A DNA stretch of 64,000 nucleotides, taken from NCBI GenBank assembly GCA_965214705.1, contig CBDCCI010000002.1, forward strand, positions 1,376,001-1,440,000, given 5' to 3'. Below, in pieces: positions 26,552-62,749 of this stretch (position 1 is its first letter; every line of letters begins with the position of its first letter). The position numbers and the translations under genes were made by a program. Below the pieces are notes generated by a model. That model was not told the DNA's origin and did no database searches. It worked only from the letters and a program-made list of their open reading frames with translations. This DNA comes from Alphaproteobacteria bacterium (lineage in GTDB: Bacteria > Pseudomonadota > Alphaproteobacteria > UBA828).

Positions 26552-27430
26552 TCAGTTGCGCAACGCTGCGAAGCCTGAGATCGGGTGGTCGAGGCCCTCG
26601 AACATCTTGCCGGTGACGCGGGCGTAGTGACGGGTCGTGTTCGCGCTTCGATGGCCGAGCATGTCCCGGATCACCTCGATATCGCCGCCGCGCTCGAGGA
26701 GATGGGTCGCCGCCGAATGGCGCAGGCAATGGAAGGTGTAGCTGCGGTCGAGCTCGGCAATGTCGCGCGCCCTCCTGAAGGCGGCCTGCAAGGTCTCCGT
26801 TGCGATGGGCCTGTCGAGCGAGACGCCGTAGAAGAGCCAGCTCGTCGGACGCGGCCAGATGTTCCTGTAGTAGACGCGCAAGTAGTGGATGACGATGTCC
26901 GGCAACGGTGCCATTCTCTCGGTGCCGCCTTTGCCGGAGGGGATGTGCAGCAGCTTCTTCTCCGACAGGATGTCGCCGACCTTGATGGCCAAGGTCTCGG
27001 AGATGCGGAGCCCGCCGCCATAGCCGGTGACAATGGCAGCACGGTGGCGGAGGTCGGGTGTCGCAAGGATGAGGTGCTCGACCTCCTGCTCCGACATGTA
27101 GCGCGGCAGCTTGCCGGGCTTCTTGCGGGAGCGCAGGCCGGCGACATGGTCAGGCCAGCCGAGTGTGTCGATGTAGAGGAAGTTCAGCGCGGCGAAGGAG
27201 ACGTTGGTCGTGCCCGGACTGAGCCCCTTGTCGATCCGCCCCAGGTACCACTGGCGCACCTGCTCGGCGTCGAGCTCGTCCGGCGAGGCGTCGTAGTACC
27301 TGGCCAGGTTCTTGATCTCGCAGATGTAGGCCTTGGACGTGCTCGCGGCCAGATTGGCGATGCGGAGCTGCTCCTCCATGCGCTGGCGAAGAGGGGTGAC
27401 GGTGTTCGTGTCGCACGCGGTCCCGGTCAT
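26552..27430 (-). CDS. Tyrosine recombinase (XerC/D-like, N-terminal SAM-like domain)
   Basis: YGGGLRISE, GKGGTER, HCLRHSAATHL and LGHRSANTTRHY. Confidence 0.92.
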   Translation of the reverse strand: MTGTACDTNTVTPLRQRMEEQLRIANLAASTSKAYICEIKNLARYYDASPDELDAEQVRQWYLGRIDKGLSPGTTNVSFAALNFLYIDTLGWPDHVAGLRSRKKPGKLPRYMSEQEVEHLILATPDLRHRAAIVTGYGGGLRISETLAIKVGDILSEKKLLHIPSGKGGTERMAPLPDIVIHYLRVYYRNIWPRPTSWLFYGVSLDRPIATETLQAAFRRARDIAELDRSYTFHCLRHSAATHLLERGGDIEVIRDMLGHRSANTTRHYARVTGKMFEGLDHPISGFAALRN

Positions 27431-27988
27431 TATCGATCTCCCTGGATCGCGACGGCGCGCCGCCGGACCGATCCGGCGACGGTCCGTCGCAGGGGTCGAT
27501 GCTAACCACTGGTGATCGGGAGGCTGCTGGGGATCCGCCACCCGACGGGCGGAGCGCCACTGACGCAACCGGGAAGCGAACGCACAGAACAAACGGCACC
27601 CGCGACGCCTCGGAAATGAATGAACTCTACGCCGCTAACTCCGCGTAGCGGCTTCGTTCAAGGGAACCGTACGCAATGAAATTGCTCCCGGTCTCCGGGC
27701 CATCCCAGCCGGAAAGAGGGCCGTCATCGTGTTCACGGTCGACGACGCAAACGAGGAAGTACTCGTTCACGTCGTAAGCTACAGCGGAGCCGATTGGATC
27801 AGCCGCAGCCGCGCGAGAGTCTTGTAGTTCCGCACCGCCGGTGTTCAAAGGTTAACGCCCCGAGTAGCGGTGATTGCAGGGAGACACTCGGTTCCCCAGA
27901 GTATTGCAGGCTGCTCCAGTACGAACGCGGATTCATGCGTAAGACGGAAGCTCTACGATCCATGAACAAAATGGCCGAACGAGGCGAG

Positions 27989-30538
27989 ATGCGTGAAGCC
28001 TGGGGCAAATTCGACGGTGAGAAGACTCATCCACTCGCACATCACTGCATAGATGTCGCCGCGGTCTTTGCGCGGATGATCGAACTGCCGGTCGTTCGAG
28101 ACCGGTTGGATAAGGCGGTCGGAGTGCCGCTGGACGACGTGCAACGACACCGGCTGTCGGCGTTGGTGTTCCTGCACGACATCGGGAAGCTGCATCCGGG
28201 ATTTCAGGCCAAGGGCTGGCCAAACGGGGCATGGTCCGGTCCGGTGCGTGGCCACCTGAAGGAAAGCTGGGCGTTCTTGACGCTCGCCCTCAAGTGGCCG
28301 GAGCATCCATTCAATGGGACGATGCACCGGATAATGACATGGGGCGAGGCGGTCGGCCCTCTCCTCGCCGCAGCGGTCGCGCACCACGGCCGACCCGTGT
28401 CGCCGCCGGCCGGCCCGACGCTCATGGACTGGGATGGGCGATCGTTGCTTCACTACGATTGGCGAGCGGAGGCACGGACGATAGCCGACGCGTTTACCCA
28501 GTGGTTTGCCGGAGCCTTCGATACGGCCGCGGAGCCGTTACCGGATACTCCCCGGTTCCACCATGCGGTCGCCGGACTCGCCGCCCTTGCCGACTGGATC
28601 GGATCGGACCAGCGGTTTTTCGAGTTCCAGGCGCCATTCGATCCATGCTACGACGTCACCGCACATCGTCAGGCGGCACAGGCGCTAAGTACGGTTGGCT
28701 TGGATGTTCGCACGCTTGCCGACGGGTCTGCGCCCGAATTCACGAAGATGACGGGTTTCGCGGCGCCGAGGCCCGCGCAGGACGTAGCGGGTGCGGTGGG
28801 GGCCGAGGCCCGACTGGTCATCCTCGAAGCCGAGACCGGATCGGGCAAGACCGAAGCTGCGCTGTGGCGGTTCGCTCAACTCTTTGCGGCAGGCAAGGTT
28901 TCCGGTCTCTATTTCGCTGTGCCCACGCGCGCGGCGGCGCGCCAGTTACACCGGCGCGTCGTCGAGACGATGCAGCGCACTTTCGGCGAGGACGCGCCGG
29001 AGCCAGTACTGGCCATCCCCGGCATGTTGCGGGCGGGTGAGTTCGACGGCCATCGCCTACCCGGATGGGAGGTGCGATGGGACGACGACAGGGATACGGC
29101 TCCCCGACGTTGGGCGGCCGAACACGCGACCCGATTTCTTGCCGCGACGATTGCCGTGGGCACGGTGGACCAAGCGATGCTCGCGGGCCTTCGAGTCAAG
29201 CACGCGCATCTGCGGGGCAGTGCGCTCAGTCGTAGCATACTGGTGATCGACGAGGTTCATGCTTCCGATGCCTACATGACAGAAGTCCTGAAGCGGCTTC
29301 TTGATGGACATCTCGCGGCCGGCGGATATGCGATGCTGATGTCCGCCACACTCGGCGCGCGAGCACGAGTCCGCTGGACTGGTGAAGCCTTGCCAGACTT
29401 CACGACCGCTCACGCGTTGCCCTATCCAGCGGTCTGGGTGAAGGGGGAACTCGAACCACGTGCCGTCGGCGAAGCGGAGCGCCCAAAGACGGCGCACTTG
29501 GAGACCGTGCCTACGATGGACGCGGTGACGGCGGCGGCGCGGGCTATCTCAGCGGCAGAGCACGGCGCTCGGGTCCTGGTAATCCGCAATACGGTGGCCG
29601 CGGCGGTGGCGACGTGGCGTGCGGTTCTGGAGGCCGAAGCGGAATCCCTGCTCATGCAGGTCGAAGGACATTCTGCGTTGCATCATGGACGGTTCGCCGC
29701 AGAGGACCGCCTCCTCCTGGATCGAGCCGTGGAGGCGGCACTGAAACCGGAACAAGACCGGGAATGCAAAGGCTGCATCGTCATTGGCACGCAGACACTG
29801 GAACAATCCCTCGATATTGACGCCGATTTTCTCGTTACCGACTTGTGTCCGATGGATGTGCTGCTGCAACGGATCGGTCGGCTTCACCGGCATGACATTC
29901 GCCGGCGACCGTCAGACTTCGATAATGCCCGCGTCGCATTGCTGTTACCTGAGGATGGGCTGGACCCACTCGCGAAACCAGCGTTCAAGAACGGACTTGG
30001 CGCGTGGGAGACGCCGGAGGGTATTAACGGGATCTATCGCGATCTCGCGGGGCTCGAGCTGACTTCGCGAGCAATCGCAAAGAATCGGAAATGGCGGATA
30101 CCGCAGATGAACCGTGCGCTGGTCGAGGGTGCTACCCATCCCGAGCACATCGACGCGCTGATCGAAGAGAAGGGCCAGGGCTGGAAGCGTTACGAGAGAA
30201 AGGTCGGCGGTGCGGCCTTGGCCGAAGGCATGATCGCCGAGCTCAACTCCCTGGACCGTGAGGAGCGGTTCGAAGACGCGATCTTTCCCGATTCGGACGA
30301 ACGGATCATTACACGGCTCGGAGAGGAGGGAATCGTGCTGAGGCTCGATCCGCCGCCTGTCGGCCCGTTCGGTCGTTGCATAAGTCGTATTGCCCTGCTG
30401 GCACGCTGGTCCCGCGGCATCGGTATTGACGAACCCGTGGAGATATGCGCCGAAGCGGAGAGTCTTGTCCTGTCGCTCGGGGGTAGGCGGTTCCGCTATT
30501 CGCGAGAGGGGTTGGCAGTCGAAACGGGACGGCCTTGA
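27989..30538 (+). CDS. cas3: Type I-E Cas3 HD nuclease-helicase
   Basis: HPLAHHCIDV, LHDIGK, LADWIGS, AETGSGKT, IDEVH, MSAT, GTQTLEQSLDID and QRIGRLHRH. Confidence 0.95.
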   Translation: MREAWGKFDGEKTHPLAHHCIDVAAVFARMIELPVVRDRLDKAVGVPLDDVQRHRLSALVFLHDIGKLHPGFQAKGWPNGAWSGPVRGHLKESWAFLTLALKWPEHPFNGTMHRIMTWGEAVGPLLAAAVAHHGRPVSPPAGPTLMDWDGRSLLHYDWRAEARTIADAFTQWFAGAFDTAAEPLPDTPRFHHAVAGLAALADWIGSDQRFFEFQAPFDPCYDVTAHRQAAQALSTVGLDVRTLADGSAPEFTKMTGFAAPRPAQDVAGAVGAEARLVILEAETGSGKTEAALWRFAQLFAAGKVSGLYFAVPTRAAARQLHRRVVETMQRTFGEDAPEPVLAIPGMLRAGEFDGHRLPGWEVRWDDDRDTAPRRWAAEHATRFLAATIAVGTVDQAMLAGLRVKHAHLRGSALSRSILVIDEVHASDAYMTEVLKRLLDGHLAAGGYAMLMSATLGARARVRWTGEALPDFTTAHALPYPAVWVKGELEPRAVGEAERPKTAHLETVPTMDAVTAAARAISAAEHGARVLVIRNTVAAAVATWRAVLEAEAESLLMQVEGHSALHHGRFAAEDRLLLDRAVEAALKPEQDRECKGCIVIGTQTLEQSLDIDADFLVTDLCPMDVLLQRIGRLHRHDIRRRPSDFDNARVALLLPEDGLDPLAKPAFKNGLGAWETPEGINGIYRDLAGLELTSRAIAKNRKWRIPQMNRALVEGATHPEHIDALIEEKGQGWKRYERKVGGAALAEGMIAELNSLDREERFEDAIFPDSDERIITRLGEEGIVLRLDPPPVGPFGRCISRIALLARWSRGIGIDEPVEICAEAESLVLSLGGRRFRYSREGLAVETGRP

Positions 30539-30563
30539 CAAGAGGCGAGCGAGTTCCTAGTGT
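30535..30563 (+). promoter_or_regulatory. Sigma70-type promoter for the cascade operon
   Basis: TTGACA (30535-30540), 17-nt spacer, TAGTGT (30558-30563). Confidence 0.7.
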
Positions 30564-30614
30564 TTCCAAAACAGTGTAACTGGCAGAAGATCATCTTCCC
30601 TAGGAGATCCCACG

Positions 30615-30830
30615 ATGCGCTTCAGCATAGGTCTTGGTTTAGGGGTCGATTGGCGACGCGACAGCCATGTCAACCACCGCTGGACGGCACTTGTGATGCT
30701 GGCGCTTAGCGCCATATGTTATCCCCGAAGCTGGATTCGGGATAGACCTAGTGTGACTGGTACGCCCGTGTCGCACCGGATGGATTCCCCGTTGACTGCG
30801 GGGGTGAGAAGGGACCGGATCGGCGAATGA
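30615..30830 (+). CDS. Putative 71-aa leader ORF overlapping the CRISPR-like mini-array
   Basis: AGGAG at 30602-30606. Its stop overlaps the cse1 start (ATGA). No recognisable family. Confidence 0.35.
   Translation: MRFSIGLGLGVDWRRDSHVNHRWTALVMLALSAICYPRSWIRDRPSVTGTPVSHRMDSPLTAGVRRDRIGE
30718..30811 (+). ncRNA. CRISPR-like regulatory RNA (CreR/CreA-type mini-array)
   Basis: Pseudo-repeat GTTATCCCCGAAGCTGGATTCGGGATAGACCT, a 32-nt spacer at 30750-30781, and pseudo-repeat GGATTCCCCGTTGACTGCGGGGGTGAGAAG. The spacer 5' end matches 30573-30585 next to AAC. Confidence 0.8.
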
Positions 30831-32371
30831 ATCTCATTTCCGATCCGATCCTGACCCTTGCCGGTCGTACCAGGGCTTCGCTCCCCGGTCTGCTCGCGGC
30901 GATGGCGTGCCGCGAGGTGCGGGGATTTCCGGCGCTGCGTCCACACCAGCGGCCAGCTTGGCACATGTTTCTTGTTCAGCTCGCTGCCCTAGCGCTCTGG
31001 ACGGCTGGCCGCGACGATCAGCCCCTCGACGTCGAATCCTGGGCCGAGACCCTACGTGGGCTGACGGCGGACCATCCGGACGACTCGCCCTGGCGATTAG
31101 CGGTTGCGGATCGGAGCAAGCCCGCCTTCATGCAGGCCCCGGCACCGGACGGATTGAAGTGGTCCGAGGTCCCCACGCCCGACGCACTCGACATGCTCAT
31201 CACCGCGCGCAATCACGACTTGAAGCAGGCGGTCGCGCGGCAGGCGACGGCCGAAGATTGGGTCTACGCCCTGGTGTCGCTGCAGACCTGCGAAGGATAC
31301 GGCGGTAGAGGGAACAACGGGATTGCGCGCATGAACGGCGGTTCGTCCAGCCGCCCGTTGCTGGGCCTCGCGCCGACCCGCGGAGAGGACATGTCCATCA
31401 ATCCCTCAGCTTGGTGGGCGCGGGACGTGAAGCTGTTGTTGGCTGCACGGGAGAAGGGCGCGCATGGCCAACTCGGCACGCAGGGCGGACCGGCACTGCT
31501 TTGGTGCCTCGACTGGCCGGAGGGCCGACAGCTCGACATTCGCACACTCGATCCCTGGTTCATCGAGACTTGCCGCCGCGTGCGCTTGACAGAGTCGGGC
31601 GGGCGGCTATCGGCGCACCGCGCTACTTCTAATGGAACGCGCATCGACGCAAAAGCGCTCAGGGGCAATACCGGCGATCCCTGGACGCCGGTCGACAACA
31701 GTGGCAAGAGCCTGACCCTCAGCGAGAGTGGCGACTTCCACTATCGCCGCCTCTACGACTTGCTGTTCTCCGGCAATTGGAACAGGCCGCTTCTCGCTTG
31801 TCCAGGGGACGACGAGACCGTTGACATGCTCGTCGTGGCGGAGGCGTTCGCGCGCGGCAACAGCAAGACCGGGGGCTTCAAGTCGCGCGTGGTGCCGGTG
31901 CCGGGAAGAGTCTTGCCGCTATTCTCGTCCGGCGATATCGGCAGACTTGCCTCGGAGCAGCTAAAGGAGATCGAGAGCTTCGACAAGGCGCTGGCATATG
32001 CACTCGCGTTGACGGCTGCGGGCGGCAAGACCGAAGACGGCGCCGTTGGAAAAAAACACTTCGCTCATGCCGGCCCCGCCCGAAAGCGCTTCGATCAGGC
32101 CGCCGACCGGCTCTTCTTTCCGAGCCTGTGGCGTCGGACCGGCGCGGCAACCGAAAGCGACGACGCGGCCTTCGAGGCGAGGCGGGCATTCCTTGCCGAT
32201 CTGTGGGAATCGGCGAAGACCGAGTTCGAGGCGGCGCTGCCGTCCATCCCCTGCCCGACGGCCTTGCGTCCGAGGGCTGAGGCACGAGCACGGCGGGCGC
32301 TCCGTAACCGAGTATGGAAACACTACTACCCCGAGTTGTTCGACCGGGAGGGGGCCGATGACGCTGTCTGA
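30827..32371 (+). CDS. cas8e: Cas8e/Cse1 (CasA)
   Basis: MNLISDPIL start, PAFMQ and GNTGDPW motifs, and first position in a I-E cascade operon. Confidence 0.88.
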   Translation: MNLISDPILTLAGRTRASLPGLLAAMACREVRGFPALRPHQRPAWHMFLVQLAALALWTAGRDDQPLDVESWAETLRGLTADHPDDSPWRLAVADRSKPAFMQAPAPDGLKWSEVPTPDALDMLITARNHDLKQAVARQATAEDWVYALVSLQTCEGYGGRGNNGIARMNGGSSSRPLLGLAPTRGEDMSINPSAWWARDVKLLLAAREKGAHGQLGTQGGPALLWCLDWPEGRQLDIRTLDPWFIETCRRVRLTESGGRLSAHRATSNGTRIDAKALRGNTGDPWTPVDNSGKSLTLSESGDFHYRRLYDLLFSGNWNRPLLACPGDDETVDMLVVAEAFARGNSKTGGFKSRVVPVPGRVLPLFSSGDIGRLASEQLKEIESFDKALAYALALTAAGGKTEDGAVGKKHFAHAGPARKRFDQAADRLFFPSLWRRTGAATESDDAAFEARRAFLADLWESAKTEFEAALPSIPCPTALRPRAEARARRALRNRVWKHYYPELFDREGADDAV

Positions 32372-32939
32372 CGACAAACAGGCGGAAGCCGCGTGCGCCG
32401 CCGCCAAGAGGTTGCAGCACCTACCGCCTGGTCCACTTGCCGAATTGCGCCTGATGACCGAAGAGGCGGCAGCGCCGGAATTCTGGCGACTGGCCGCGCG
32501 GCATCCCGACACCATCGGAAATCGAAAGCAATACCCCGAATGGACTGCCATCGTGCGCGTCCTTGCGATCCTCACGAAGAAGGGCAATCCCGCCAGGCGG
32601 CGTCCTCTGCACGATCGTCGACGCTCTCTCGGTGAAGTGTTGTGTGACGGAGGCGACCAGAAATGGCCACCGCCGGGCGGTGGACCTCCCAGACCCGTGT
32701 TCAGCGAACGGCGTCTCGCGCAACTTATGGCAGCGCGTGGGCCGCAGCGCGCGGTCCTGCTGACGCGCGCGGCCCGCGCCCTGGCCCGAAGCCGCGACCC
32801 AAGCGGCGGCATCAATGTCGTCGATATCGCCTATACACTGTTGGCGCCCGATAACCGACGTCAACTGGCCGAACCCTACTACCGCCGGCTCGACCGCGCA
32901 GAGCTCGCCGCCCAGGAATCAGAGGAAGGAACGGAATGA
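32358..32939 (+). CDS. cse2: Cas11/Cse2 (CasB)
   Basis: PGPLAELR, FSERRLAQL and LAEPYY, plus operon position. Confidence 0.85.
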   Translation: MTLSDDKQAEAACAAAKRLQHLPPGPLAELRLMTEEAAAPEFWRLAARHPDTIGNRKQYPEWTAIVRVLAILTKKGNPARRRPLHDRRRSLGEVLCDGGDQKWPPPGGGPPRPVFSERRLAQLMAARGPQRAVLLTRAARALARSRDPSGGINVVDIAYTLLAPDNRRQLAEPYYRRLDRAELAAQESEEGTE

Positions 32940-34066
32940 TGACCCGTCCCCGTTTTCTGCAAGTTCACACCTTGACCTCCTATACAGCCGCGCTGCTCAA
33001 CCGCGACGACAGCGGATTGGCCAAGCGGTTACCCTACGGCGGAGCGCTGCGCACGCGGATTTCCTCACAGTGCTTGAAACGGCATTGGCGCATCGCCGAT
33101 GATCCGCACGCGCTGGACAGGATTGACGGGGCGACTGCAGCGTTCCGTTCGCGCGAGTTGGTCACACGCAAGGTCATCGGTCCCTTGCGCGATAACTTCT
33201 CCGAGGACGTTGTCGCGGCTCTTGAAGGCGAATTTCAATTGGCGGTCTATGGTGACAAGGGCGGCGACAGGGCGAGCCGCCAGACCCTGTTGTTGGGCGA
33301 GCCAGAGCTGAATTGGCTCAAGAACCAGGCCGAGGATTTGGCGCAACAGGCGTCGGGCGATGCGAAAGCGGCGGCAGACGGCGCTCAGAAATGGCGAAAG
33401 GATTTCCAGGCGAACATCAAGACGATGCGCGACGGCGCATCGCTGCCTGCCGGCTTGGTCTCCGCGTTGTTCGGGCGCATGGTCACATCCGATCCGGAAG
33501 CCAACATCACCGCGCCCGTGCATGTCGCCCACGCCTTCACCGTCCACGAGGAAGAGCCGGAGAGCGACTACTTCACGGCGGTCGACGACCTTGGGGAGGA
33601 CGAGCCCGGTGCAGACACGATCCAGGAGACCGAACTCACTTCCGGCCTGTTCTATGGCTACGTCGCGGTCGATCTGTCCGGCCTCGCGACAAATCTCGGC
33701 GGCGACACCGGCATGGCGGGCAGCGTGCTGCACAATCTCGTCTACCTCATCGCCGAGGTCTCACCCGGCGCCAAGCTGGGCTCGACCGCCCCTTACGGCC
33801 GGGCAGCCCTAATTCTACTGGAGGCCGGCGACCGGCAGCCGCGCAGCCTCGCCGAGGCATACCGGACACCTTGCGCTCCGCACGTGGGCCCGGCCATCGA
33901 GGCGCTCACGAATCATCTCGTCGCGCTCGACCAAGCCTACGCCACCAGCGAGGAGCGGCGGACGATGTCGCTGGCGAACGAGACCAATGTCCCTGGCGCC
34001 GAGCGCGGTACGCTGGCCGATTTGGCCGAATGGGCCCGAACCCTGCCGGAAAGGGCTATGCCGTGA
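32936..34066 (+). CDS. cas7: Cas7/Cse4 (CasC)
   Basis: LNRDDSGLAK, RISSQCLKR, ALFGRM, VAHAFTVH and DYFTAVDD. Confidence 0.95.
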   Translation: MMTRPRFLQVHTLTSYTAALLNRDDSGLAKRLPYGGALRTRISSQCLKRHWRIADDPHALDRIDGATAAFRSRELVTRKVIGPLRDNFSEDVVAALEGEFQLAVYGDKGGDRASRQTLLLGEPELNWLKNQAEDLAQQASGDAKAAADGAQKWRKDFQANIKTMRDGASLPAGLVSALFGRMVTSDPEANITAPVHVAHAFTVHEEEPESDYFTAVDDLGEDEPGADTIQETELTSGLFYGYVAVDLSGLATNLGGDTGMAGSVLHNLVYLIAEVSPGAKLGSTAPYGRAALILLEAGDRQPRSLAEAYRTPCAPHVGPAIEALTNHLVALDQAYATSEERRTMSLANETNVPGAERGTLADLAEWARTLPERAMP

Positions 34067-34785
34067 CGCACCGCTGGCTGGTCCTGCGCCTTGAAGCGCC
34101 CCTGATGGCCTTTGGCGGCGTGGCCATCGACCAGGTCGGCCCGACGCGGAACTTCCCGGCCGCCTCGATACTGACAGGACTGATAGGCAACGCACTTGGC
34201 TGGCACTGGTCGGACCGGGACGCGCATCAGGCGACGCAGGATCGGTTGGTCTTCGCGGCCCGTTGCGACCGGGAGGGTGCAGTGTTGACCGACGCGCAGA
34301 ATGTGCAACTCGCCGGGAACGACAAGGGCTGGACGACCCATGGTGCACCGGAGGGACGGACAGGTGCCAGTTACGACGCGCCGCACAGGCGGTTCCGAGA
34401 CTACTTAGCCGACGCATCGCTGCGCATCGTCCTGCGTCTGGATCCGGTCGAGGAAGCGCCGACTCTAGTCGCGGTGGCGGAGGCAATCGACCGACCCGCG
34501 CGGCCGCTGTTCCTGGGGCGCAAGCCGTGCCTGCCCTCAGCGCTGCTGCTAGAGAGTGGAGACGAGCGGTGGGTGAGCGCCGGCAACGCTTGGGAAGCAC
34601 TCCGCGCCGTACCCGGTGCCGGAACGCCAGCGCGCGCCCAATGGCCCTCCGGCCAGGGGCCTGAGTCGGGTGACAACGTGGATCGCATTGCCGATTTGGC
34701 CGACCTGCGGAACTGGCGCACCGGCCTGCACGGCGGGACGCGCCGGGTGGTGGAGGGTTGGATCGTTCCGGCCGCGGCGGCATGA
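34063..34785 (+). CDS. cas5: Cas5e (CasD)
   Basis: LRLEAPLMAFG, GLIGNALG, RDYLADA and LFLGRKPCLPS, with a GTG start overlapping the cas7 stop. Confidence 0.93.
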   Translation: MTHRWLVLRLEAPLMAFGGVAIDQVGPTRNFPAASILTGLIGNALGWHWSDRDAHQATQDRLVFAARCDREGAVLTDAQNVQLAGNDKGWTTHGAPEGRTGASYDAPHRRFRDYLADASLRIVLRLDPVEEAPTLVAVAEAIDRPARPLFLGRKPCLPSALLLESGDERWVSAGNAWEALRAVPGAGTPARAQWPSGQGPESGDNVDRIADLADLRNWRTGLHGGTRRVVEGWIVPAAAA

Positions 34786-35561
34786 CGACGTTCCATCTGG
34801 TCCGCGCTCCCGTCGACACCGGCCGCTTGGCCCGATGGGCCGACGAACGCGGTTGGGCCGGGTTGAAAGGCTCCGTGTATGACGAAGGCCGCGCCCTGCA
34901 CCATCTCGTGACCGAAGTCTGGGGACCGGGAGTCCTCCCCTGCTTCAGGTTTCTCGTCCCGCCCCGCCGACGGGCCGGCAATCTCTACGCGTACTCGGCA
35001 ATGGACGCGGAAGACTTGCGCGCAGCGGCGGACGTCCAGGCCCCGCCGGAACACCTGAAGGTCCTGTGCCTCGACGGGCTGGAGAGCAAGCTGATGCCGG
35101 CGGACTGGCGCGCGGGGCAACGGTTGGGCTTCGATCTGCGGGCTCGACCGATCCGACGCCTGCGGCGCGACCTGAACGGCCCGAGAGAGCGGGTCCCCGC
35201 TGGACGCGAGGTCGATGCGTTCCTGGTAGAGGCCTTGCGCGGCCACCCCGAAGCGCCGGACGGCATGAGCAACGAGGGCCGGACACGGCAGGAGGTCTAT
35301 CTCGACTGGCTGGCCGAACGGCTTACCCCCACGGCCACGCTCGACCGTTCAGCAACTCATCTTGTTCGTTTCAGGCGCCAGCGGGTCGCACGAGAGAATC
35401 GCGATTCTGAGGGGCCGGACGCCACCGTACACGGCGTTCTCGTCGTGGCCGATCCGACAGCGTTCTCCGCGCTACTGATGCGGGGCGTTGGGCGGCACCG
35501 AGCCTATGGCTACGGCATGCTGCTGCTGCGCCCGCCCGGCCGCCCGATTCCGGTGCGGTAG
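34782..35561 (+). CDS. cas6e: Cas6e/Cse3 (CasE)
   Basis: C-terminal Gly loop GVGRHRAYGYGMLLL, and GFDLRARP. Confidence 0.93.
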   Translation: MTTFHLVRAPVDTGRLARWADERGWAGLKGSVYDEGRALHHLVTEVWGPGVLPCFRFLVPPRRRAGNLYAYSAMDAEDLRAAADVQAPPEHLKVLCLDGLESKLMPADWRAGQRLGFDLRARPIRRLRRDLNGPRERVPAGREVDAFLVEALRGHPEAPDGMSNEGRTRQEVYLDWLAERLTPTATLDRSATHLVRFRRQRVARENRDSEGPDATVHGVLVVADPTAFSALLMRGVGRHRAYGYGMLLLRPPGRPIPVR

Positions 35562-36446
35562 ATGCTGAAGGGCCGGCTTGGACTCGACAGCGCCAAGGTC
35601 CCGCACAAGGATCGGGCCGGACTTCTCTATCTCGCGCGCGGCGCGTTGACAGCCAGAGACGGCACGCTCGCCTTCCTGCAAGGGCAAGCGACAGCGGCGG
35701 ACGCGCTCGGGCCCGGCGATTACGCGATCCCGCTTCAGGGAGTCTCGATGATTTTGCTCGGCCCTGGCTCCACGGTCAGCCATGACGCGTTGCGTCTACT
35801 TGCCTACGCCCGCACCGCGCTCGCGGCGGTGGGAGAGGACGGGGTTCGTCTCTACACCGCCCCTCCGCTGATTCCCGACCGCTCCGGCCTTGCGCGGCGG
35901 CAAGCGCGGCTGTGGGCCGACGACGCCAAGCGCATTGCCGTTGCCCGTCGAATGTACGCCTGGCGCCTGGGCGAAGTATTGCCGCATCGCTCGCTGGACG
36001 TGCTGCGCGGCATCGAGGGCGCGCGAATGAAGGAGAGTTATCGCCTGCACGCCCAGCGAGCCCGGATCGAGTGGCGTGGACGCCGCTATGATCGCGCCGA
36101 CCCGGGAGCGGCGGACCTGCCCAATCAGGCCCTCAACCACGCATCGAGCGCGGTCGAAGGCGCCGCTGCCATCGCTGTCGCCGCTACCGCGACGATCCCG
36201 CAGCTCGGTTTCATCCACGAGGACGCGGGGCAATCGTTCGTTCTGGACATCGCTGACCTTCATCGCGACACCATCACCATTCCCTGTGCTTTCCGTGCTG
36301 CCAAGCGAGTCGCCGAACGCCCCGACGAGAACATCGAGCGGCTTACCCGCCGGCTGACGGGGGAAACATTGGCACGCGAACATGTGATCCCAGCGATGAT
36401 CGAGCGAATAAGATCCCTCTTCGAGGAACCCTCCGGGGAGGAGTGA
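35562..36446 (+). CDS. cas1: Type I-E Cas1
   Basis: LLGPGSTVSHDAL, LRGIEGARMK, NQALN, LGFIH and FVLDIADL. Confidence 0.96.
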   Translation: MLKGRLGLDSAKVPHKDRAGLLYLARGALTARDGTLAFLQGQATAADALGPGDYAIPLQGVSMILLGPGSTVSHDALRLLAYARTALAAVGEDGVRLYTAPPLIPDRSGLARRQARLWADDAKRIAVARRMYAWRLGEVLPHRSLDVLRGIEGARMKESYRLHAQRARIEWRGRRYDRADPGAADLPNQALNHASSAVEGAAAIAVAATATIPQLGFIHEDAGQSFVLDIADLHRDTITIPCAFRAAKRVAERPDENIERLTRRLTGETLAREHVIPAMIERIRSLFEEPSGEE

Positions 36447-36754
36447 TCGGACGAATGGCCATGGCGATGGTCGTCACCCGCAACGTGGAAGCCCGCTATC
36501 GCGGCTTTCTGACCTCCGTCATGCTTGAAGTCGCACCCGGAGTCTACGTGGCACCCGACCTGTCGGCGGGCGTGCGGACACGAGTGTGGGACGTGTTGTC
36601 GGCCTGGTGGTCGGCACTGCGCAAAGGGTCGATCGTCCTGGTATGGAGAGACACAACAGCCGTTGGGAAATTGCGCATTCAGACGCTCGGCGAGCCTCCT
36701 AAAGAGATCGTGGACGCAGACGGTGTCCTTCTCGTAAAACGGCAAGGGGATTAG
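36443..36754 (+). CDS. cas2: Type I-E Cas2
   Basis: VVTRNVEARYRGFLTSVMLEVAPGVYV...IVDADGVLLV. Confidence 0.93.
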   Translation: MIGRMAMAMVVTRNVEARYRGFLTSVMLEVAPGVYVAPDLSAGVRTRVWDVLSAWWSALRKGSIVLVWRDTTAVGKLRIQTLGEPPKEIVDADGVLLVKRQGD

Positions 36755-36811: not shown

Positions 36812-38092
36812 GGCTCCCCCGCCCGCGCGGGGATAGCCCCAGAGAAGGGACTCAAGATTATGACAAGCACGGGGCTCCCCCGCCCGCGCGGGGATAGCCC
36901 CATACTAGTCCTCGTCAGCAGTCATGCGGCGGGGGCTCCCCCGCCCGCGCGGGGATAGCCCCCGGCCTCTGACCAACATCAGCATCGCCTATATGGCTCC
37001 CCCGCCCGCGCGGGGATAGCCCCATCCCGGTGATGAAGCAGTCCGACGCGTACTGGGCTCCCCCGCCCGCGCGGGGATAGCCCCCTGCATCATCCTGCAC
37101 GAATCTCTTCAGCACAGGCTCCCCCGCCCGCGCGGGGATAGCCCCGGTCTAAACAGGGAGACAACAGGGAGACTGGAGGCTCCCCCGCCCGCGCGGGGAT
37201 AGCCCCCTCTTGCCGTATTCTTCCGAAATAACCTGTGCGGCTCCCCCGCCCGCGCGGGGATAGCCCCGAGAGGTGAGGAACAACGGCCGGGGTCGCTAAG
37301 GCTCCCCCGCCCGCGCGGGGATAGCCCCCCGTACGTGTGCCACGACGCGGAGGCCGCCGTGGCTCCCCCGCCCGCGCGGGGATAGCCCCGATCCCCTCCA
37401 GGAGCGCCGGCCGCAGCTCGTGGCTCCCCCGCCCGCGCGGGGATAGCCCCGCCTTGTTTGGCTCGCGGGATGCGCTCTTCACGGCTCCCCCGCCCGCGCG
37501 GGGATAGCCCCAATGAAGGGACTCAGATATGACGTGCACGGAAGGCTCCCCCGCCCGCGCGGGGATAGCCCCCGAGCAGCACTACCCCGACGCCCTCGTG
37601 CTCGGGCTCCCCCGCCCGCGCGGGGATAGCCCCCTCGACGGCGCCAACCTCGCCCGCGCCAACCTGGCTCCCCCGCCCGCGCGGGGATAGCCCCCTTGAC
37701 GCCGTAGTAGTCAGAGCTGCCCGTTCGGCTCCCCCGCCCGCGCGGGGATAGCCCCGCCATGAAGCTGGTGATCGACTACGCCGACATGGCTCCCCCGCCC
37801 GCGCGGGGATAGCCCCGCAGAAGCCGACGCTGGGACCAGCGATTCGAAGGCTCCCCCGCCCGCGCGGGGATAGCCCCGATCCCTCGGTCGGCGCTTTCGT
37901 CATGATCATGGCTCCCCCGCCCGCGCGGGGATAGCCCCATTGCGGTCGAGTCCGCCAGCTCCCGCACGAAGGCTCCCCCGCCCGCGCGGGGATAGCCCCG
38001 AGAGACATGACCGATTCAGCCCACCCAGCCTGGCTCCCCCGCCCGCGCGGGGATAGCTGCGGCCTCAACACCCGCCACATCTCAGCATTAGT
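36812..38092 (+). CRISPR. Type I-E array, leader-proximal part: 21 repeats and 21 spacers
   Basis: 29-bp repeat GGCTCCCCCGCCCGCGCGGGGATAGCCCC with 32-bp spacers and a 61-bp period. Repeat 21 ends in ATAGCTGC. Confidence 0.98.
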
Positions 38093-40063
38093 CCGAACTT
38101 CCCCAGCAGATATTGAGCTAAGTTGTTGCGGTGGCTTTCCAAACCACCGTTTCGCGGAGTCGCGTACTGGGTACGCTACAGGCTGACGCCAAGCAGATCG
38201 AGCGCCTGGCGCTGTACCGGCGTCGGCTTGGTGACCAGATCGAAGGGCGGTGCTCCGGCGAGTTTCGGTTGAACGCGGTTCCTGGCGATGGTCGCCAAAT
38301 CATCGAGGAGCGTGCGGAAGCTGTGCACCGGCATCCCGTCTGGCGTGCGTTTGCCGGCGGCCTTGCGACGGGCGGAGGGCGAGGGCTTTGCCGGTGAGAC
38401 GATGGAAGCGCGCGCGGCGTCCGCAGCGGCCGGGTCGTCCTCGTCGAACAGGATGGGGGCGAGCCTTTGGCGCATGTGCCATTCGACGTGGTAGGCGAGC
38501 ATGCACAGCAGCACGTGGGCGCGCACGCGCTCGGGGCGGTAGTGGTGGATGGGCCGCACCTTGAGGTCGACGGTCTTGACGCTGCGGAAGGCGCGCTCGA
38601 TGCGGCTCAATCCCTTGTAGGCGCGCACCGTGTCCTCGGCTCCGAGCTCGCCCTCGGGCACGCTGGTGCGGATGACGTAGAGGCCATCGAGCGCCGCCTC
38701 CTCGGCGATCCGCTCCCGGTTGCGCTGCCAGGTGAAGCCGTCATCGGCGATCTCCAGCTCGAAGTGCTTGGCGACCTTGTGCTTGCCGATGACCTTGCCC
38801 ACGCGCAGGCCGATCTTGTCCTTGCCGGCGAGGCGGCGCTTGGCGCGCCGTGTTGCCGCTCGGATCTCGTCGAGGTCGCCCTCGGTGGCCTGGAGCAGGG
38901 CCTCGCGCTTGCGCGCCCTCTCGACGGCGAGCAGCGGGTTGCGGCAGGCGATCAGGCGTTCGCCGGGGAAGTCGGGATGATGGATCTCGGCCAGGTCGCG
39001 TTCGTCGAAGAGCGAGGGCTGCAGCGTTCCGCTGGAGGCCAGCTCCCGGATCGCCGGCGCCCGCAGCGCGCTGATCCACTCCAACCCGGCCGGCTTCACC
39101 TCCTCGCGGATGCGCGCCTCGGTGAGCATGCCGCGATCGCCCACCAGCACCACCCGCGAGAGGCCGAAGCGCCGGCGCAGCTTGTCGATCTGGGAGCCCA
39201 GGGTGGCCGGATCGGCGGTGTTGCCCTCGAACACCTCCACCGCCACCGGGCAGCCCTGCGCGTTGCACAGGAGCCCGAACACGATCTGCAGCTTGCCGCG
39301 CTTGCCGTCGCGGGAGTAGCCGTGATGCGCCAGCGGGCAGCAGCGCCCCTCCAGCCATGTCGAGGTGACGTCGTAGAGTACCAGAGCGCCGTCCTCGAGG
39401 TGACGCTCGGCCAGACGCCGTTCGATCCTGCCCTGGCGCTCAAGCAGCCAGTCCATCGCCTGGTAGAGTTCGTCTTCGTCGACCTCGCCCAGGTCGAGGG
39501 CCTCGCCGAGGCCGCAGCTCAGGGTGTCGCCGCTGAGCCCGCGTGCGGTGGCGAGCTTCGAGCGCGGCGCCACGATGCGGGCGACGATCATCGCCGCCGC
39601 GAGGTCGCGCAGCCGCGAGCGCCTGGCCGCGATCAGCCGTTCCAGACCGAGGCCGCGCAGAGCCCCGAGCACCGCTGCGACATGGCCGAAGGGACGCGAG
39701 CGGGTGATGTCGAAGCCGTCGTCCTCGCGGCGCTTCTCGCCGCGGGGCACAGCGGTTCCGCCGCGCAAGAGGATGCGCAGGCCCTCGACCAGGTGCGGGG
39801 GCCACCTGGAGAGGTTGGCGAGGGTGCGCTTTCTGATTTTTCCGCCTTCGCGCCATGATTCGCGCAGGAGGATTGCGGGGGGTGAGTTCCGGTTTGGGAC
39901 GCTTTCGATATACATGGGGACGGATCATAGTGCCTGACCCGCAAAATATCAACGCCCCATCCTCATTTACATGGGTACACTTTGCATCCGCACCAACGGC
40001 CGATACGTCCGCAAAAACAAAGACTTATGCCCGAAAATCAGCGAAATTCTGGGGGAAGTTCGG
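38093..40063 (-). mobile_element. IS1634-family element inserted in the CRISPR array
   Basis: TIR CCGAACTTCCCC/GGGGAAGTTCGG. The 6-bp TSD ATTAGT is at 38087-38092 and 40064-40069. Confidence 0.93.
38176..39915 (-). CDS. IS1634-family transposase
   Basis: MYIESVPNRNSPPAILLRESWREGGK, LYDVTSTW, GYSRDGK, VGDRGM and IERAFRSVKTVDLKVRPIHH. Confidence 0.93.
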   Translation of the reverse strand: MYIESVPNRNSPPAILLRESWREGGKIRKRTLANLSRWPPHLVEGLRILLRGGTAVPRGEKRREDDGFDITRSRPFGHVAAVLGALRGLGLERLIAARRSRLRDLAAAMIVARIVAPRSKLATARGLSGDTLSCGLGEALDLGEVDEDELYQAMDWLLERQGRIERRLAERHLEDGALVLYDVTSTWLEGRCCPLAHHGYSRDGKRGKLQIVFGLLCNAQGCPVAVEVFEGNTADPATLGSQIDKLRRRFGLSRVVLVGDRGMLTEARIREEVKPAGLEWISALRAPAIRELASSGTLQPSLFDERDLAEIHHPDFPGERLIACRNPLLAVERARKREALLQATEGDLDEIRAATRRAKRRLAGKDKIGLRVGKVIGKHKVAKHFELEIADDGFTWQRNRERIAEEAALDGLYVIRTSVPEGELGAEDTVRAYKGLSRIERAFRSVKTVDLKVRPIHHYRPERVRAHVLLCMLAYHVEWHMRQRLAPILFDEDDPAAADAARASIVSPAKPSPSARRKAAGKRTPDGMPVHSFRTLLDDLATIARNRVQPKLAGAPPFDLVTKPTPVQRQALDLLGVSL

Positions 40064-40069
40064 ATTAGT

Positions 40070-40586
40070 GGCTCCCCCGCCCGCGCGGGGATAGCCCCGT
40101 CGAACGGCAGCGGGTGGTCCACAACGCCCTGGCTCCCCCGCCCGCGCGGGGATAGCCCCCGGGCATCCAGCGATCCACGTAAGTCAGGTGGGGCTCCCCC
40201 GCCCGCGCGGGGATAGCCCCCAACATGGATGACCAGCCCTCGGCGTTCAGCCGGCTCCCCCGCCCGCGCGGGGATAGCCCCTATCGTTGCGGCGCCAACT
40301 GGCGGACGCGGAGGGCTCCCCCGCCCGCGCGGGGATAGCCCCTGCCCGATCGTGCAGTTGCCGGCACCGGCGGTGGCTCCCCCGCCCGCGCGGGGATAGC
40401 CCCTTTTCGCAGGACGCCAGCCCGACGAAGCGGCCGGCTCCCCCGCCCGCGCGGGGATAGCCCCCCTCCGGCGACGCTCGAGATGCTCACGGAGGTGGCT
40501 CCCCCGCCCGCGCGGGGATAGCCCCCAACGGTGGTGCATCAACTCGACGGCACACTCGGCTCCCCCGCCCGCGCGGGGATAGCCCC
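40070..40586 (+). CRISPR. Type I-E array, distal part: 9 repeats and 8 spacers
   Basis: Same 29-bp repeat and 61-bp period. The last repeat (40558-40586) is perfect. Confidence 0.98.
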
Positions 40587-45700: not shown

Positions 45701-46049
45701 CCTGATCGGCGCGGCCGTCTCATTTGTGCGGATTCCGGTTCATTTGACCGCCGGTTCTGATTCTATCTGACCGGGGTTCTGATTTTATTTGACCGGGGTT
45801 CTGGCAACACTTGACCGTGCTGCGGGCGCGCGCCAGCGCGCTGTCTCTCCCGGATTTGGCGGTGTGACCCTCCCCTTGGTGATGTCGGGGGGCTGGCCTC
45901 TGGCCAGCCCGAGCCGAGCGTATGCGAGGCCTCTTGGGCATGCAAACGGCCGGCGGGGCGCGGCGGCAAGCTCTCACACACAGCATGCCGCCGCGCACCT
46001 CCGCCCTCGCAGCCTGGAAGGCGCCGCAGGCGCCCATGGACCCCGGCCT

Positions 46050-48421: not shown

Positions 48422-48666
48422 TGGGGCCCTGCCTCCTCGAGTCGATCGATGGATCGATGAGGCTGAGCCGGGAGAGGATCGGCGCGTCTGGAAACATGGG
48501 TGTCGGTGGCGCCCGCAGGGCGATCGGGCCGGGCCTCTGACCCGGCCTCCGGCGGTCAAATCACGCCGGAATCACGGTCAGATGTCGCCAGAACTTCGGT
48601 CAAATAAAATCAGAATGGCGGTCAGATAAATTCAGAACTGCGGTCAAATGAGGCCAGATTTGGCCA

Positions 48667-62697: not shown

Positions 62698-62749
62698 GCA
62701 AAGCTATCTATTCCCTGATGTGCGCAAAGCTATCTATTCCCTGATGTGC
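62698..62749. repeat. Perfect 26-bp tandem duplication in the putative oriT region of element 2
   Basis: GCAAAGCTATCTATTCCCTGATGTGC at 62698-62723 and 62724-62749. Confidence 0.85.

Follow-up and report, generated by a model that had tools for sequence, protein, structure and literature searches.

Why does a type I-E CRISPR-Cas locus carry, between cas3 and cse1 and apart from its CRISPR array, two repeat-like sequences and one spacer-like sequence? This arrangement is found in the window analyzed here (the whole 64-kb stretch of DNA), where a sequence-only reading had described it as a hidden mini-array that guides Cascade to its own promoter. From the comparison of related loci, we consider it likely that the element is a CreR-type (cas-regulating) mini-CRISPR of type I-E, that lies in the Cascade operon's 5' leader and autorepresses this operon.

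Anatomy of the mini-array and its target

The type I-E locus around the mini-array is complete, cas6e included, and has the following features.

27794..30538, + strand: cas3 (helicase-nuclease), ORF with NCBIfam Cas3 core and HD domains
30827..32371, + strand: cse1/cas8e, the first Cascade gene (TIGR02547, E 1.2e-13, under the curated cut-off; 80 relatives)
32373..36754, + strand: remaining operon, ORFs with family profile matches
within 32373..36754, + strand: 188-aa ORF at the cse2 position, no family match
32936-34066, + strand: cas7
34066-34785, + strand: cas5e
34758-35561, + strand: cas6e
35562-36446, + strand: cas1
36443-36754, + strand: cas2
36812..38060, + strand: CRISPR array, 21 repeats of 29 nt with 32-nt spacers
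40070..40586, + strand: second block of the same array, 9 repeats

The two array blocks are split by an IS1634-family transposase gene. The array repeat, GGCTCCCCCGCCCGCGCGGGGATAGCCCC, served as the canonical repeat with which the repeat-like sequences of the mini-array were compared.

30721-30749, + strand: PsiR1, degenerate repeat with a hairpin and an 8-nt 5'-handle
30750-30781, + strand: guide (Psi-spacer), 32 nt, the array spacer length
30782-30810, + strand: PsiR2, degenerate repeat with the 5' part and hairpin kept

On re-reading, all sequence statements of the sequence-only reading were confirmed, beginning with the two degenerate hairpin repeats flanking exactly 32 nt. The PsiR1 hairpin pairs CCCGAA (30724-30729) with TTCGGG (30736-30741) and is followed by the handle ATAGACCT (30742-30749), which is identical to the ATAGCCCC of the array repeat at 6 of 8 positions. 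Over its full length, PsiR1 agrees with the array repeat at 15/29 positions. Since its stem, CCCGAA, differs from the CCCCGC stem of the array repeat, and 2/8 handle bases differ as well, recognition by the locus's own Cas6e and Cascade is an assumption. PsiR2 pairs 30787-30792 with 30798-30803 and is identical to the array repeat at 13/29 positions, including 8/10 over the first 10 bases. The feature that characterizes CreR elements was thus found here, with the 5'-handle bases of the cognate repeat retained in PsiR1 and its 3'-handle/hairpin part in PsiR2. Single-sequence folding was no better than that of shuffles (z of -1.74 and -0.11), and the 97-nt fold favors pairing of PsiR1 with PsiR2 over two local hairpins.

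The start of the guide matches a site close to a promoter-like sequence upstream.

30535..30563, + strand: predicted promoter of the leader and Cascade operon (TTGACA at 30535-30540, 17 nt, TAGTGT at 30558-30563)
30570..30572, + strand: PAM-like AAC, directly 5' of the target on the guide-identical strand
30573..30585, + strand: protospacer-like target, same as the guide at positions 1-5, 7-11, and 13

As seen, the first 13 nt of the guide differ from the target only at positions 6 and 12, and AAC precedes the target, both as previously claimed; pairing in the window comprises 11 bases (5+5+1), none of them past position 13. The sequence AGTGTNACTGG occurs twice in the 64-kb window, in the guide and in the target (0.03 expected; 0 of 100 shuffles reached 2), and the seed preceded by AAC or AAT occurs once in the whole 7.92-Mb genome, at the target, where 0.11 occurrences were expected. 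The sequence observation is therefore correct and far beyond chance. An ordinary CRISPR array with an immune spacer was considered and rejected, given the low identity of both repeats to the array repeat and given that the sole PAM-flanked genome match of the guide seed is the locus's own promoter region. Matches of the array spacers yielded no PAM for the host's I-E system. In another I-E system, with a repeat that likewise ends in CCC, AAC is described as a proven PAM (PMC13572051), and AAT is likewise reported as an I-E PAM in other systems.

The target begins 9 nt past the -10-like hexamer, close to where transcription would be expected to start, and the -35-like TTGACA is overlapped by the last codons and stop of cas3. 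The hexamers and the spacing of the proposed promoter are present as read before, but a sigma-70 scan over 30300-31000 called no promoter, because TAGTGT agrees with TATAAT at only 3/6 positions. The promoter is therefore a motif reading backed by comparison rather than a call.

Co-variation and conservation across related loci

Of 81 related cse1 loci, 28 have the same layout; they come from several phyla and differ in guide sequence, and their handle-like motif lies 60 to 170 nt before cse1, mostly at 85 nt. For each locus, the seed of the 32 nt after the handle was searched within 600 nt upstream, with 560 shuffled guides as the control. The best target had 0 seed mismatches in 14 loci, 1 in 10, 2 in 2, and 3 in 2, so that 24 of 28 had at most one; of the shuffled guides, none reached 0 mismatches and 22/560 had 1. 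Targets therefore co-vary with guides across loci, these being related and hence non-independent samples. In two loci (L007 and L009), the handle was present with no detectable target.

Guide and target identity, counted per position in 22 loci, was 20, 20, 20, 21, 22, 2, 22, 21, 18, 22, 22, 6, 18, 15, 12, 11, 8, and 4, then 3 to 9. Positions 6, 12, and 18 are free, a six-base periodicity; as the seed positions were the search criterion, the only counts free of bias are those at positions 6 and 12 and past position 11. The best target was flanked by AAC in 16, AAT in 6, and TAC in 2 of the 28 rows, giving AAC or AAT in 22/28 against an AAY background of 2.9%. In 18/22 loci (counted by eye), TTGAC precedes the flanking motif by at most 62 nt, and the target lies a median of about 8 nt past a -10-like hexamer (ad hoc hexamer heuristic). 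The recurrence, the co-variation, the AAC/AAT flank, and the promoter-like position support the earlier proposal of RNA-guided autorepression of the Cascade operon.

The repeats are conserved in a similar manner. Across loci, 89.1% of the cells of both hairpins are paired, versus 25 to 59% with slid partners, and double-sided changes number 17 versus 6.0 ± 2.0 in shuffles, a value reached by 0 of 500. An alignment of 23 loci shows both the handle bases and the PsiR2 motif TTCCCC...GGGG kept in at least 90% of rows, several being invariant. Beside three related loci, real arrays are present, and the ATAGACCC at the end of their repeats matches the handles of the mini-arrays of the same loci at 6 to 7 of 8 positions. 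The element is kept across loci whose Cse1 proteins are 50 to 65% identical, whereas the nearest Cse1 relatives (L002 and L008 at 91%; L036) are without it, indicating that it is dispensable.

A conserved upstream ORF and the alternatives

The sequence-only reading had the layout right and overlooked a conserved ORF that reads through the mini-array.

30602..30607, + strand: Shine-Dalgarno-like AGGAGA, 7 nt before the ATG of the upstream ORF (duplex -7.3 kcal/mol)
30615..30830, + strand: upstream ORF, 71 codons and stop, conserved across loci

Lying under the targeted promoter, between target and cse1, this ORF spans the whole mini-array (PsiR1, guide, PsiR2), which it reads in the frame GAT-AGA-CCT, and its TGA stop and the ATG of cse1 overlap in an ATGA. 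Across loci, Shine-Dalgarno-preceded starts are frame specific (16 sites versus 1 and 2 in the other frames), and the frame is open in 21/27 loci against 4.65 expected. The ORF is probably translated. It shows no codon bias, and residues of the peptide are conserved only in the repeat-encoded parts, where the repeats fix the DNA. A Pfam search with all 18 upstream ORF peptides gave no credible family and no KilA-C domain, only two chance-level rows; an NCBIfam search gave no match for the peptide of the window, so that the product could be placed in no known family. Neither a terminator nor a second promoter was found between the upstream ORF and cse1, and one transcript must therefore serve both the ORF and Cascade.

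The ORF raises the alternative of a CreTA- or CrePA-like addiction or anti-anti-CRISPR module, which we regard as improbable though the best placed of the alternatives. Here the upstream ORF would yield a toxic peptide, or be toxic as a translated RNA, and the promoter repressed by the guide would serve mainly to control this product. A cell that lost Cascade, or whose Cascade was inhibited, would then be poisoned, with cas autoregulation of secondary importance. The order of promoter and target, Shine-Dalgarno-ATG ORF, and mini-array is that of the creTA operon described for Halobacterium hubeiense type I-B, in which creA is co-transcribed from the promoter that it represses (Cheng et al. 2021, PMC8501985), one promoter serving a translated small ORF and a crRNA-like gene whose RNA targets that promoter. 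The ORF is kept in frame, length, and start signal, and two of its early codons, the fifth (ATA) and the ninth (TTA), are very rare, at relative uses of 0.03 and 0.01; toxin-antitoxin genes are reported as enriched beside mini-arrays (Shmakov et al., PMC10120712). However, its rare codons are neither consecutive nor right after the start, unlike those of the two CreT RNAs characterized; the H. hubeiense CreT is described as a mini-ORF in which two rare codons follow one another, with a stem-loop, and as toxic via tRNA sequestration (PMC8501985). CreT also ends before creA, with a terminator after creA, while the 71-codon ORF here spans the mini-array into cse1 on a shared transcript. Membership in CreTA was rejected on the codon placement and the length, although the Shine-Dalgarno sequence and ATG are present. 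For CrePA of Acinetobacter baylyi type I-F, a protein ORF in the cas3-cas8 spacer region is likewise described under a promoter repressed by the neighboring crRNA-like RNA; its CreP is a 103-aa KilA-C domain protein (bioRxiv 10.1101/2024.01.05.574328), which has homologues and is separate from creA. The peptides here are domainless with almost no conserved residues, and the lack of KilA-C or another credible Pfam match in 18/18 led us to reject CrePA membership. The same absence of family matches, and conservation confined to repeat-encoded parts, argue against a toxic peptide in general.

It is very unlikely that the element is a functionless decayed array remnant or stray repeat pair, with the 11-base match a leftover or chance. 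The low identity of the repeats to the array repeat, the unremarkable folding energy, and the closest relatives without the element would suit such decay. Nevertheless, a remnant would not be expected at a fixed position across several phyla and distant Cse1 proteins, with compensatory changes in both hairpins, guide-target co-variation of six-base periodicity, and a PAM-flanked match unique in the genome. We give equally little credence to the AGTGTNACTGG copies being operators of a protein regulator, or the region a plain small protein gene, with incidental repeat likeness: a promoter-proximal direct repeat is a typical operator arrangement and a conserved ORF spans the region, but a protein would not leave every sixth base free, an operator sequence would not vary by locus at a fixed 8-nt distance from a GGG-ending hairpin, a protein gene should show codon bias or conserved residues outside the repeat-encoded parts, and the handle corresponds to that of the cognate arrays.

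Probable CreR-type autorepression and its setting in a leader ORF

CreR-type autorepression is not new in kind, since it has been shown for the I-E system of Salmonella enterica (Liu et al., bioRxiv 10.1101/2023.03.10.532045) and mini-arrays between cas3 and cas8 are predicted widely in I-E to target the cas8 promoter (Shmakov et al., PMC10120712). The mini-array, although real, therefore embodies no hidden new principle. As described, Salmonella CreR is also a degenerate mini-CRISPR in the cas3-casA/cse1 spacer region, with the 5' handle kept in PsiR1 and the 3' part in PsiR2, and with a guide partly matching a PAM-flanked site at the casA promoter. The Salmonella guide matches 15 consecutive bases by AAG, about 140 bp before casA, whereas here the match is 5+5+1 by AAC. 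Salmonella creR was assayed from its own or a tac promoter, while the locus studied here is known from its sequence. Compared with the Salmonella arrangement, the mini-array here lies downstream of the targeted promoter, in its own operon's leader, 17 nt before the cse1 start and inside an ORF.

In the survey of Shmakov et al., about 19% of 3741 I-E loci are reported with a mini-array, and sixth-position mismatches are reported for I-F1 mini-arrays (PMC10120712). The locus position, the cas8 promoter target, and a seed beside the better-conserved repeat are shared with the present case, in contrast to their Escherichia coli example, with a target downstream of the mini-array and an AAG PAM. 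As described, their pipeline dropped repeat-like matches overlapping annotated ORFs, so that ORF-embedded mini-arrays may be under-counted. A more distant parallel is the long tracrRNA (tracr-L), in which an effector reprogrammed by a noncanonical, partly complementary guide represses its own cas9 promoter; it belongs to a class 2 system, has another RNA origin, and is described as having no Cas6 processing. What is new here, as read from the DNA, is a mini-array in its operon's own predicted 5' leader, inside a conserved upstream ORF of about 71 codons.

Under CreR-type autorepression, we infer the following course of events. A transcript from TTGACA-17-TAGTGT would cross the leader of about 250 nt into cse1, and Cas6e would cleave it at the bases of the two repeat-like hairpins. 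The released crRNA-like RNA, from 30742 to about 30803 (61 to 62 nt), would consist of the handle, the 32-nt guide, and the 3' hairpin. Cascade loaded with this guide would read the AAC and pair 11 bases at the transcription start region, a pairing that would suffice to hold Cascade and block RNA polymerase but presumably not to form a complete R-loop and let Cas3 cut. Because promoter-bound Cascade would block RNA polymerase, it would repress its own operon together with guide synthesis. Array crRNAs would compete with the mini-array guide, and repression should ease when ordinary crRNAs titrate Cascade or when inhibitors block it, a sensing of crRNA load and anti-CRISPRs as proposed for Salmonella CreR (bioRxiv 10.1101/2023.03.10.532045).

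More tentatively, and in our estimate with the chances against it, the mini-array might be deliberately embedded in the translated leader ORF, with ribosomes and Cas6e competing for the RNA. A translated leader would have its repeat hairpins melted and would pass ribosomes to cse1, so that Cascade would be made; from an untranslated leader, Cas6e would cut out the repressor guide and sever cse1 from its upstream ribosome entry site. Such competition would add a post-transcriptional layer sensing Cas6e and translation to the transcriptional autorepression, and the crRNA-like RNA would be the first to be encoded within, and gated by, a coding frame. As a variant, toxicity may come from the peptide or its translation, as one arm of a CreTA-like guard that is fused to the cas operon.

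Feedback of the CreR type is proposed to match effector production to the crRNA load and to allow a rebound after anti-CRISPR attack, and has so far rested on a few tested loci. The conserved ORF over the mini-array raises the question of whether guide maturation is coupled to leader translation, and pipelines that discard repeat-like matches inside ORFs will miss such elements. The clade described here is an unusually clean natural data set, with two dozen loci from at least six phyla and differing guides; each guide fits the promoter of its own locus in blocks of five bases, and every sixth base is free. Overall, these data provide independent comparative support for the mechanism and for AAC and AAT as accepted flanks.

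The type I-E locus and the mini-array between cas3 and cse1

ORF and family calls place a complete type I-E locus in the window, with a degenerate mini-array (PsiR1, guide and PsiR2) between cas3 and cse1.

Features of the type I-E locus and its mini-array
26552-27592 (- strand): tyrosine recombinase/integrase gene, directly upstream of cas3
27794-30538: cas3
30573-30585: target of the guide, preceded by AAC (30570-30572)
30615-30830: upstream ORF
30721-30749: PsiR1, first degenerate repeat, hairpin CCCGAA/TTCGGG, ending in the handle ATAGACCT
30750-30781: guide, 32 nt
30782-30810: PsiR2, second degenerate repeat, hairpin CCCCG(T)/(G)CGGGG
30827-32371: cse1
remaining genes of the locus: a 188-aa ORF in the cse2 position, cas7, cas5e, cas6e, cas1 and cas2
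36812-38060 and 40070-40586: array in two blocks, 29-nt repeats (GGCTCCCCCGCCCGCGCGGGGATAGCCCC) and 32-nt spacers
38176-39915 (- strand): IS1634-family transposase gene (E 5.2e-97), between the two array blocks

The cas3-cse1 spacer region is 288 nt long, with a GC content of 0.569 versus 0.667-0.669 for the genome's three contigs. Identity to the array repeat is modest (15/29 for PsiR1 and 13/29 for PsiR2) and is concentrated in the 8-nt handle of PsiR1 (30742-30749; 6/8) and, for PsiR2, in bases 1-10 and the hairpin. Guide bases 1-13 equal the target apart from positions 6 and 12, and the target, with AAC directly before it, starts 9 nt past the putative promoter TTGACA-17-TAGTGT (30535-30540 and 30558-30563). 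Single-sequence folding of the mini-array was uninformative. The observation made in the sequence-only reading (two degenerate repeats, a 32-nt guide and an AAC-flanked target match) is confirmed. Within the window, the seed pattern occurs only at the guide and the target (two sites versus 0.03 expected). With an AAC or AAT flank, the pattern has a single site in the 7.92-Mb genome, which is the target (0.11 expected).

The two array blocks have identical repeats and look like one former array split by the IS1634-family transposase gene; the final repeat ahead of that gene is degenerate, ending GCTGC. Two spacers (36841-36872 and 37512-37543) are variants of a single sequence, with GAAGGGACTCA...ATGAC..GCACGG in common plus an indel, and suggest that related invaders were sampled more than once; no protospacer turned up for either. 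Outside the window, on contig C3 of genome G000 (C3:2065084-2066100, - strand), lie two more small array blocks, of 2 and 7 repeats, with the same 29-nt repeat and about 650 kb away from the cas locus. The CRISPR-Cas locus may be on a mobile island, given the integrase gene directly upstream of cas3. Elsewhere in the window, two sets of 22-nt tandem repeats (45745-45817 and 48552-48658), about 2.7 kb apart and apparently mutually inverted copies, could be multi-site mobile-element ends or iterons, and at 62698-62749 a 26-nt unit is duplicated in tandem without a mismatch (2.0 copies, 100% match).

Guide and target pairing across related loci

A DNA search with 30500-30900 in 61 related genomes matched the window only, and the comparison was therefore made via the Cse1 protein. 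The resulting set has 81 sequences, the window plus the best 80 of 116 confirmed Cse1 matches; these related loci are non-independent samples, and two of them (L018 and L019) are identical copies. The latter are copies of the whole cse1 region on one contig, at about 1.10 Mb and about 1 kb, and reflect either genuine duplication or contig ends that overlap in the assembly. A handle of the form GG-ATAnnCCn lies 60-170 nt upstream of cse1 in 28 of the 81 sequences, in most of them at exactly 85 nt. Since the pattern used for the handle was strict and at least one sequence scored as negative (L068) resembles a more decayed form, these 28 rows are a lower bound.

For each of the 28 rows, the 32 nt after the handle were taken as the guide, and both strands of the 600 nt upstream were searched using only positions 1-5 and 7-11. 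Mismatches at the best site numbered zero in 14 rows, one in 10, two in 2 and three in 2; among 560 shuffled guides, none had zero mismatches and 22 had one. The guide sequence varies by lineage (e.g., GGTGTGACTGG, GTGGTGTCCGA, CGTGTGGTCGG, GGGAACGCTGA and TACTTGGCTGC), and every target tracks its own guide. Position by position, guide and target are identical in 20, 20, 20, 21, 22, 2, 22, 21, 18, 22, 22, 6, 18, 15, 12, 11, 8 and 4 of 22 loci, then in 3-9, and positions 6, 12 and those beyond 11 are unbiased because they were left out of the search. The five-base blocks of predicted guide/target pairing, with every sixth base free and a fading after about 17, match the footprint expected of Cascade. 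The target flank is AAC in 16 of the 28 rows, AAT in 6 and TAC in 2, over an AAC/AAT background of 2.9%.

The repeats also covary. In an ungapped alignment of 23 sequences, 89.1% of the cells of both hairpins are paired, versus 25-59% with a slid partner, and double-sided changes number 17 versus 6.0+/-2.0 in shuffles (reached in 0 of 500). At three related loci, the neighboring arrays have repeats ending in ATAGACCC, matching the loci's own mini-array handles at 6-7 of 8 bases. Descent of the guides from full-length copies of the target was not supported: the L004 guide agrees with the window's target at 11/20 tail positions, a score equalled by three unrelated pairs (all-pair mean, 5.3). In the related loci L079 (about 3838-3933) and L078, it is L079 that has the handle and guide bases 1-11 tandemly duplicated (ATAGACCC-TGCTTGTTTGT twice), which may capture such an element in the course of change.

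Derivation of the PAM from spacer hits, one of the checks proposed with the sequence-only reading, gave no PAM from genome, phage, plasmid, viral or metagenome matches. The genome's 35 array spacers had no match of at least 22 aligned bases better than E 0.45 in the rest of the genome, the array had none in phage and plasmid collections, and two spacer patterns found nothing among viral contigs. One spacer pattern led to one metagenome contig (L082), with flank CGA and surroundings that read like a conserved enzyme gene; it was set aside as uninformative, agreement with the spacer being confined to the 23 searched bases. The argument that the repeat's final C reflects the PAM is plausible by analogy, since for a Streptomyces I-E system with a repeat likewise ending CCC, the PAM is reported to be AAC by experiment (PMC13572051), and since I-E repeat clusters are listed with AAC, AAT and AAN, the last base of the repeat often being that of the PAM too (PMC8482600). 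By our own count, the last handle base equals the last PAM base in 15/23 versus about 12 expected, which is no signal.

In a quick Cse1 tree of 79 rows (L042 and L075 were left out, presumably as translations below the 350-residue cut-off), the element occurs in 28 rows, 23/44 in one major branch and 5/35 in the other. It is clustered beyond any of 500 label shuffles, and well-supported branches force at least nine gains or losses. Judging by record titles, its hosts include Acidobacteriota, Latescibacterota, Deinococcota, Spirochaetota, Binatota and several Pseudomonadota classes. In the window's nearest relatives (L002 and L008, both with 91% Cse1 identity, plus L036), the spacer region is shorter and different and lacks the element: they have in common with the window the cas3 end and the AGTGTTTC motif of its -10 region, past which comes a different, shorter leader with neither mini-array nor upstream ORF. 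The element is present in L004, the next branch out, and the simplest reading of these sequences is that it was lost in the three relatives. The element is dispensable.

A proposed CreR-type circuit at the predicted promoter

The mini-array is likely a CreR-type regulatory mini-CRISPR, a member of an already known kind whose crRNA-like RNA steers Cascade to the cas promoter. RNA-guided autorepression of the Cascade operon, as originally proposed from the sequence, is supported as an instance of the CreR kind by the guide/target covariation across loci, the AAC/AAT flanks and published precedent. The Salmonella I-E CreR is reported to have a 15-base match beside AAG, about 140 bp ahead of casA, and repression there is guide dependent and relieved by crRNA overexpression and by an anti-CRISPR (bioRxiv 10.1101/2023.03.10.532045). 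Predicted mini-arrays are described for about 19% of 3741 I-E loci, typically in the cas3-cas8 interval and aimed at the cas8 promoter (PMC10120712).

From the anatomy and this precedent, we infer the following circuit. The promoter would yield a transcript of a leader of about 250 nt and the Cascade genes, and cleavage by Cas6e after the PsiR1 and PsiR2 hairpins would release an RNA from 30742 to about 30803. Cascade carrying this RNA would bind the AAC-flanked site at its own transcript start via 11 base pairs and stop RNA polymerase; Cas3 would stay unlicensed because such short pairing cannot complete the R-loop. Since the guide comes from the transcript that it represses, guide and Cascade would be subject to one shared negative feedback.

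A sigma-70 scan of 30300-31000 called no promoter, because TAGTGT fits TATAAT at only 3/6 positions. Across the loci, TTGAC lies at most 62 nt upstream of the flank in 18/22 (counted by eye), and a hexamer heuristic puts the target -3 to +35 nt (median, about 8) past a -10-like hexamer. These positions place the target at about the predicted transcription start, a start set by motif rather than mapped.

An upstream ORF across the mini-array

A conserved ORF (30615-30830) that had escaped the sequence-only reading covers the mini-array. A Shine-Dalgarno-like AGGAGA lies 7 nt ahead of its ATG; it crosses the whole mini-array, from PsiR1 to PsiR2, in the frame GAT-AGA-CCT, and its terminal TGA overlaps the cse1 ATG as ATGA. 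In 28/28 rows, this frame is stop-free between the handle and roughly the start of cse1. The stop ends exactly 4 nt into the cse1 start in 19 rows, with an offset of 0 in two and of -1 in one; where cse1 starts is uncertain in the other 6. Across a stretch of about 185 nt, 21 of 27 distinct loci keep the frame open versus 4.65 predicted when only the variable segments were shuffled (21 reached in 0 of 200,000 simulations). Starts preceded by a Shine-Dalgarno (duplex of -6 kcal/mol or lower, 45-150 nt upstream of PsiR1) number 16 in the ORF frame, in 14/27 loci, versus 1 and 2 in the other frames. ORF lengths cluster at 64-73 codons, with exactly 71 in seven loci. Taken from sequence, these features make translation of the upstream ORF likely.

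The signal of selection on the encoded protein is weak. The sole invariant residues are those encoded by the repeats, and differences in protein-guided pairwise alignments are nearly flat across codon positions (382/328/441 over 809 codons). Neither in codon adaptation (CAI, 0.351 versus 0.419 and 0.397) nor in GC3 (0.63) does the ORF surpass the other two frames, and it falls short of both the cas genes (0.484-0.571) and the proxies for host genes (median, 0.722). Among 524 candidates, a profile search picked out 30 predicted proteins of 64-73 aa, all of them unnamed and outside any Pfam family; three, each 71 aa long, share 73-86% identity with the window's peptide. No protein-family match was found for the ORF peptides. 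The conserved trait is probably the act of translating the leader rather than the peptide.

The ORF may serve to deliver ribosomes to cse1, to protect the long leader against premature termination, or to let ribosomes compete with Cas6e for the repeat hairpins. By analogy, it may also be a toxin arm of the CreT or CreP type, since the order of promoter, ORF and mini-array is that of the Halobacterium hubeiense creTA operon (PMC8501985). One test of the coupling idea failed, as cse1 Shine-Dalgarno strength did not differ with and without the element: the proposal that an intrinsic Shine-Dalgarno of cse1 is missing only in loci with the ORF was not supported by duplex energies (median of -5.55 in 22 loci with the mini-array versus -3.5 in 23 without; -6 or lower in 6 loci per group). 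Inside the ORF, just before PsiR1, a terminator-like hairpin (30700-30714, TGGCGC-TTA-GCGCCA) is followed by a T-rich run and could be an attenuator read through on ORF translation; its conservation in relatives was not evident by eye.

The literature searches and paper passages covered on mini-CRISPRs and CreR nowhere mentioned an ORF that overlaps a mini-array. Within that scope, the ORF-embedded, leader-borne arrangement is a variant for which no published description was found.
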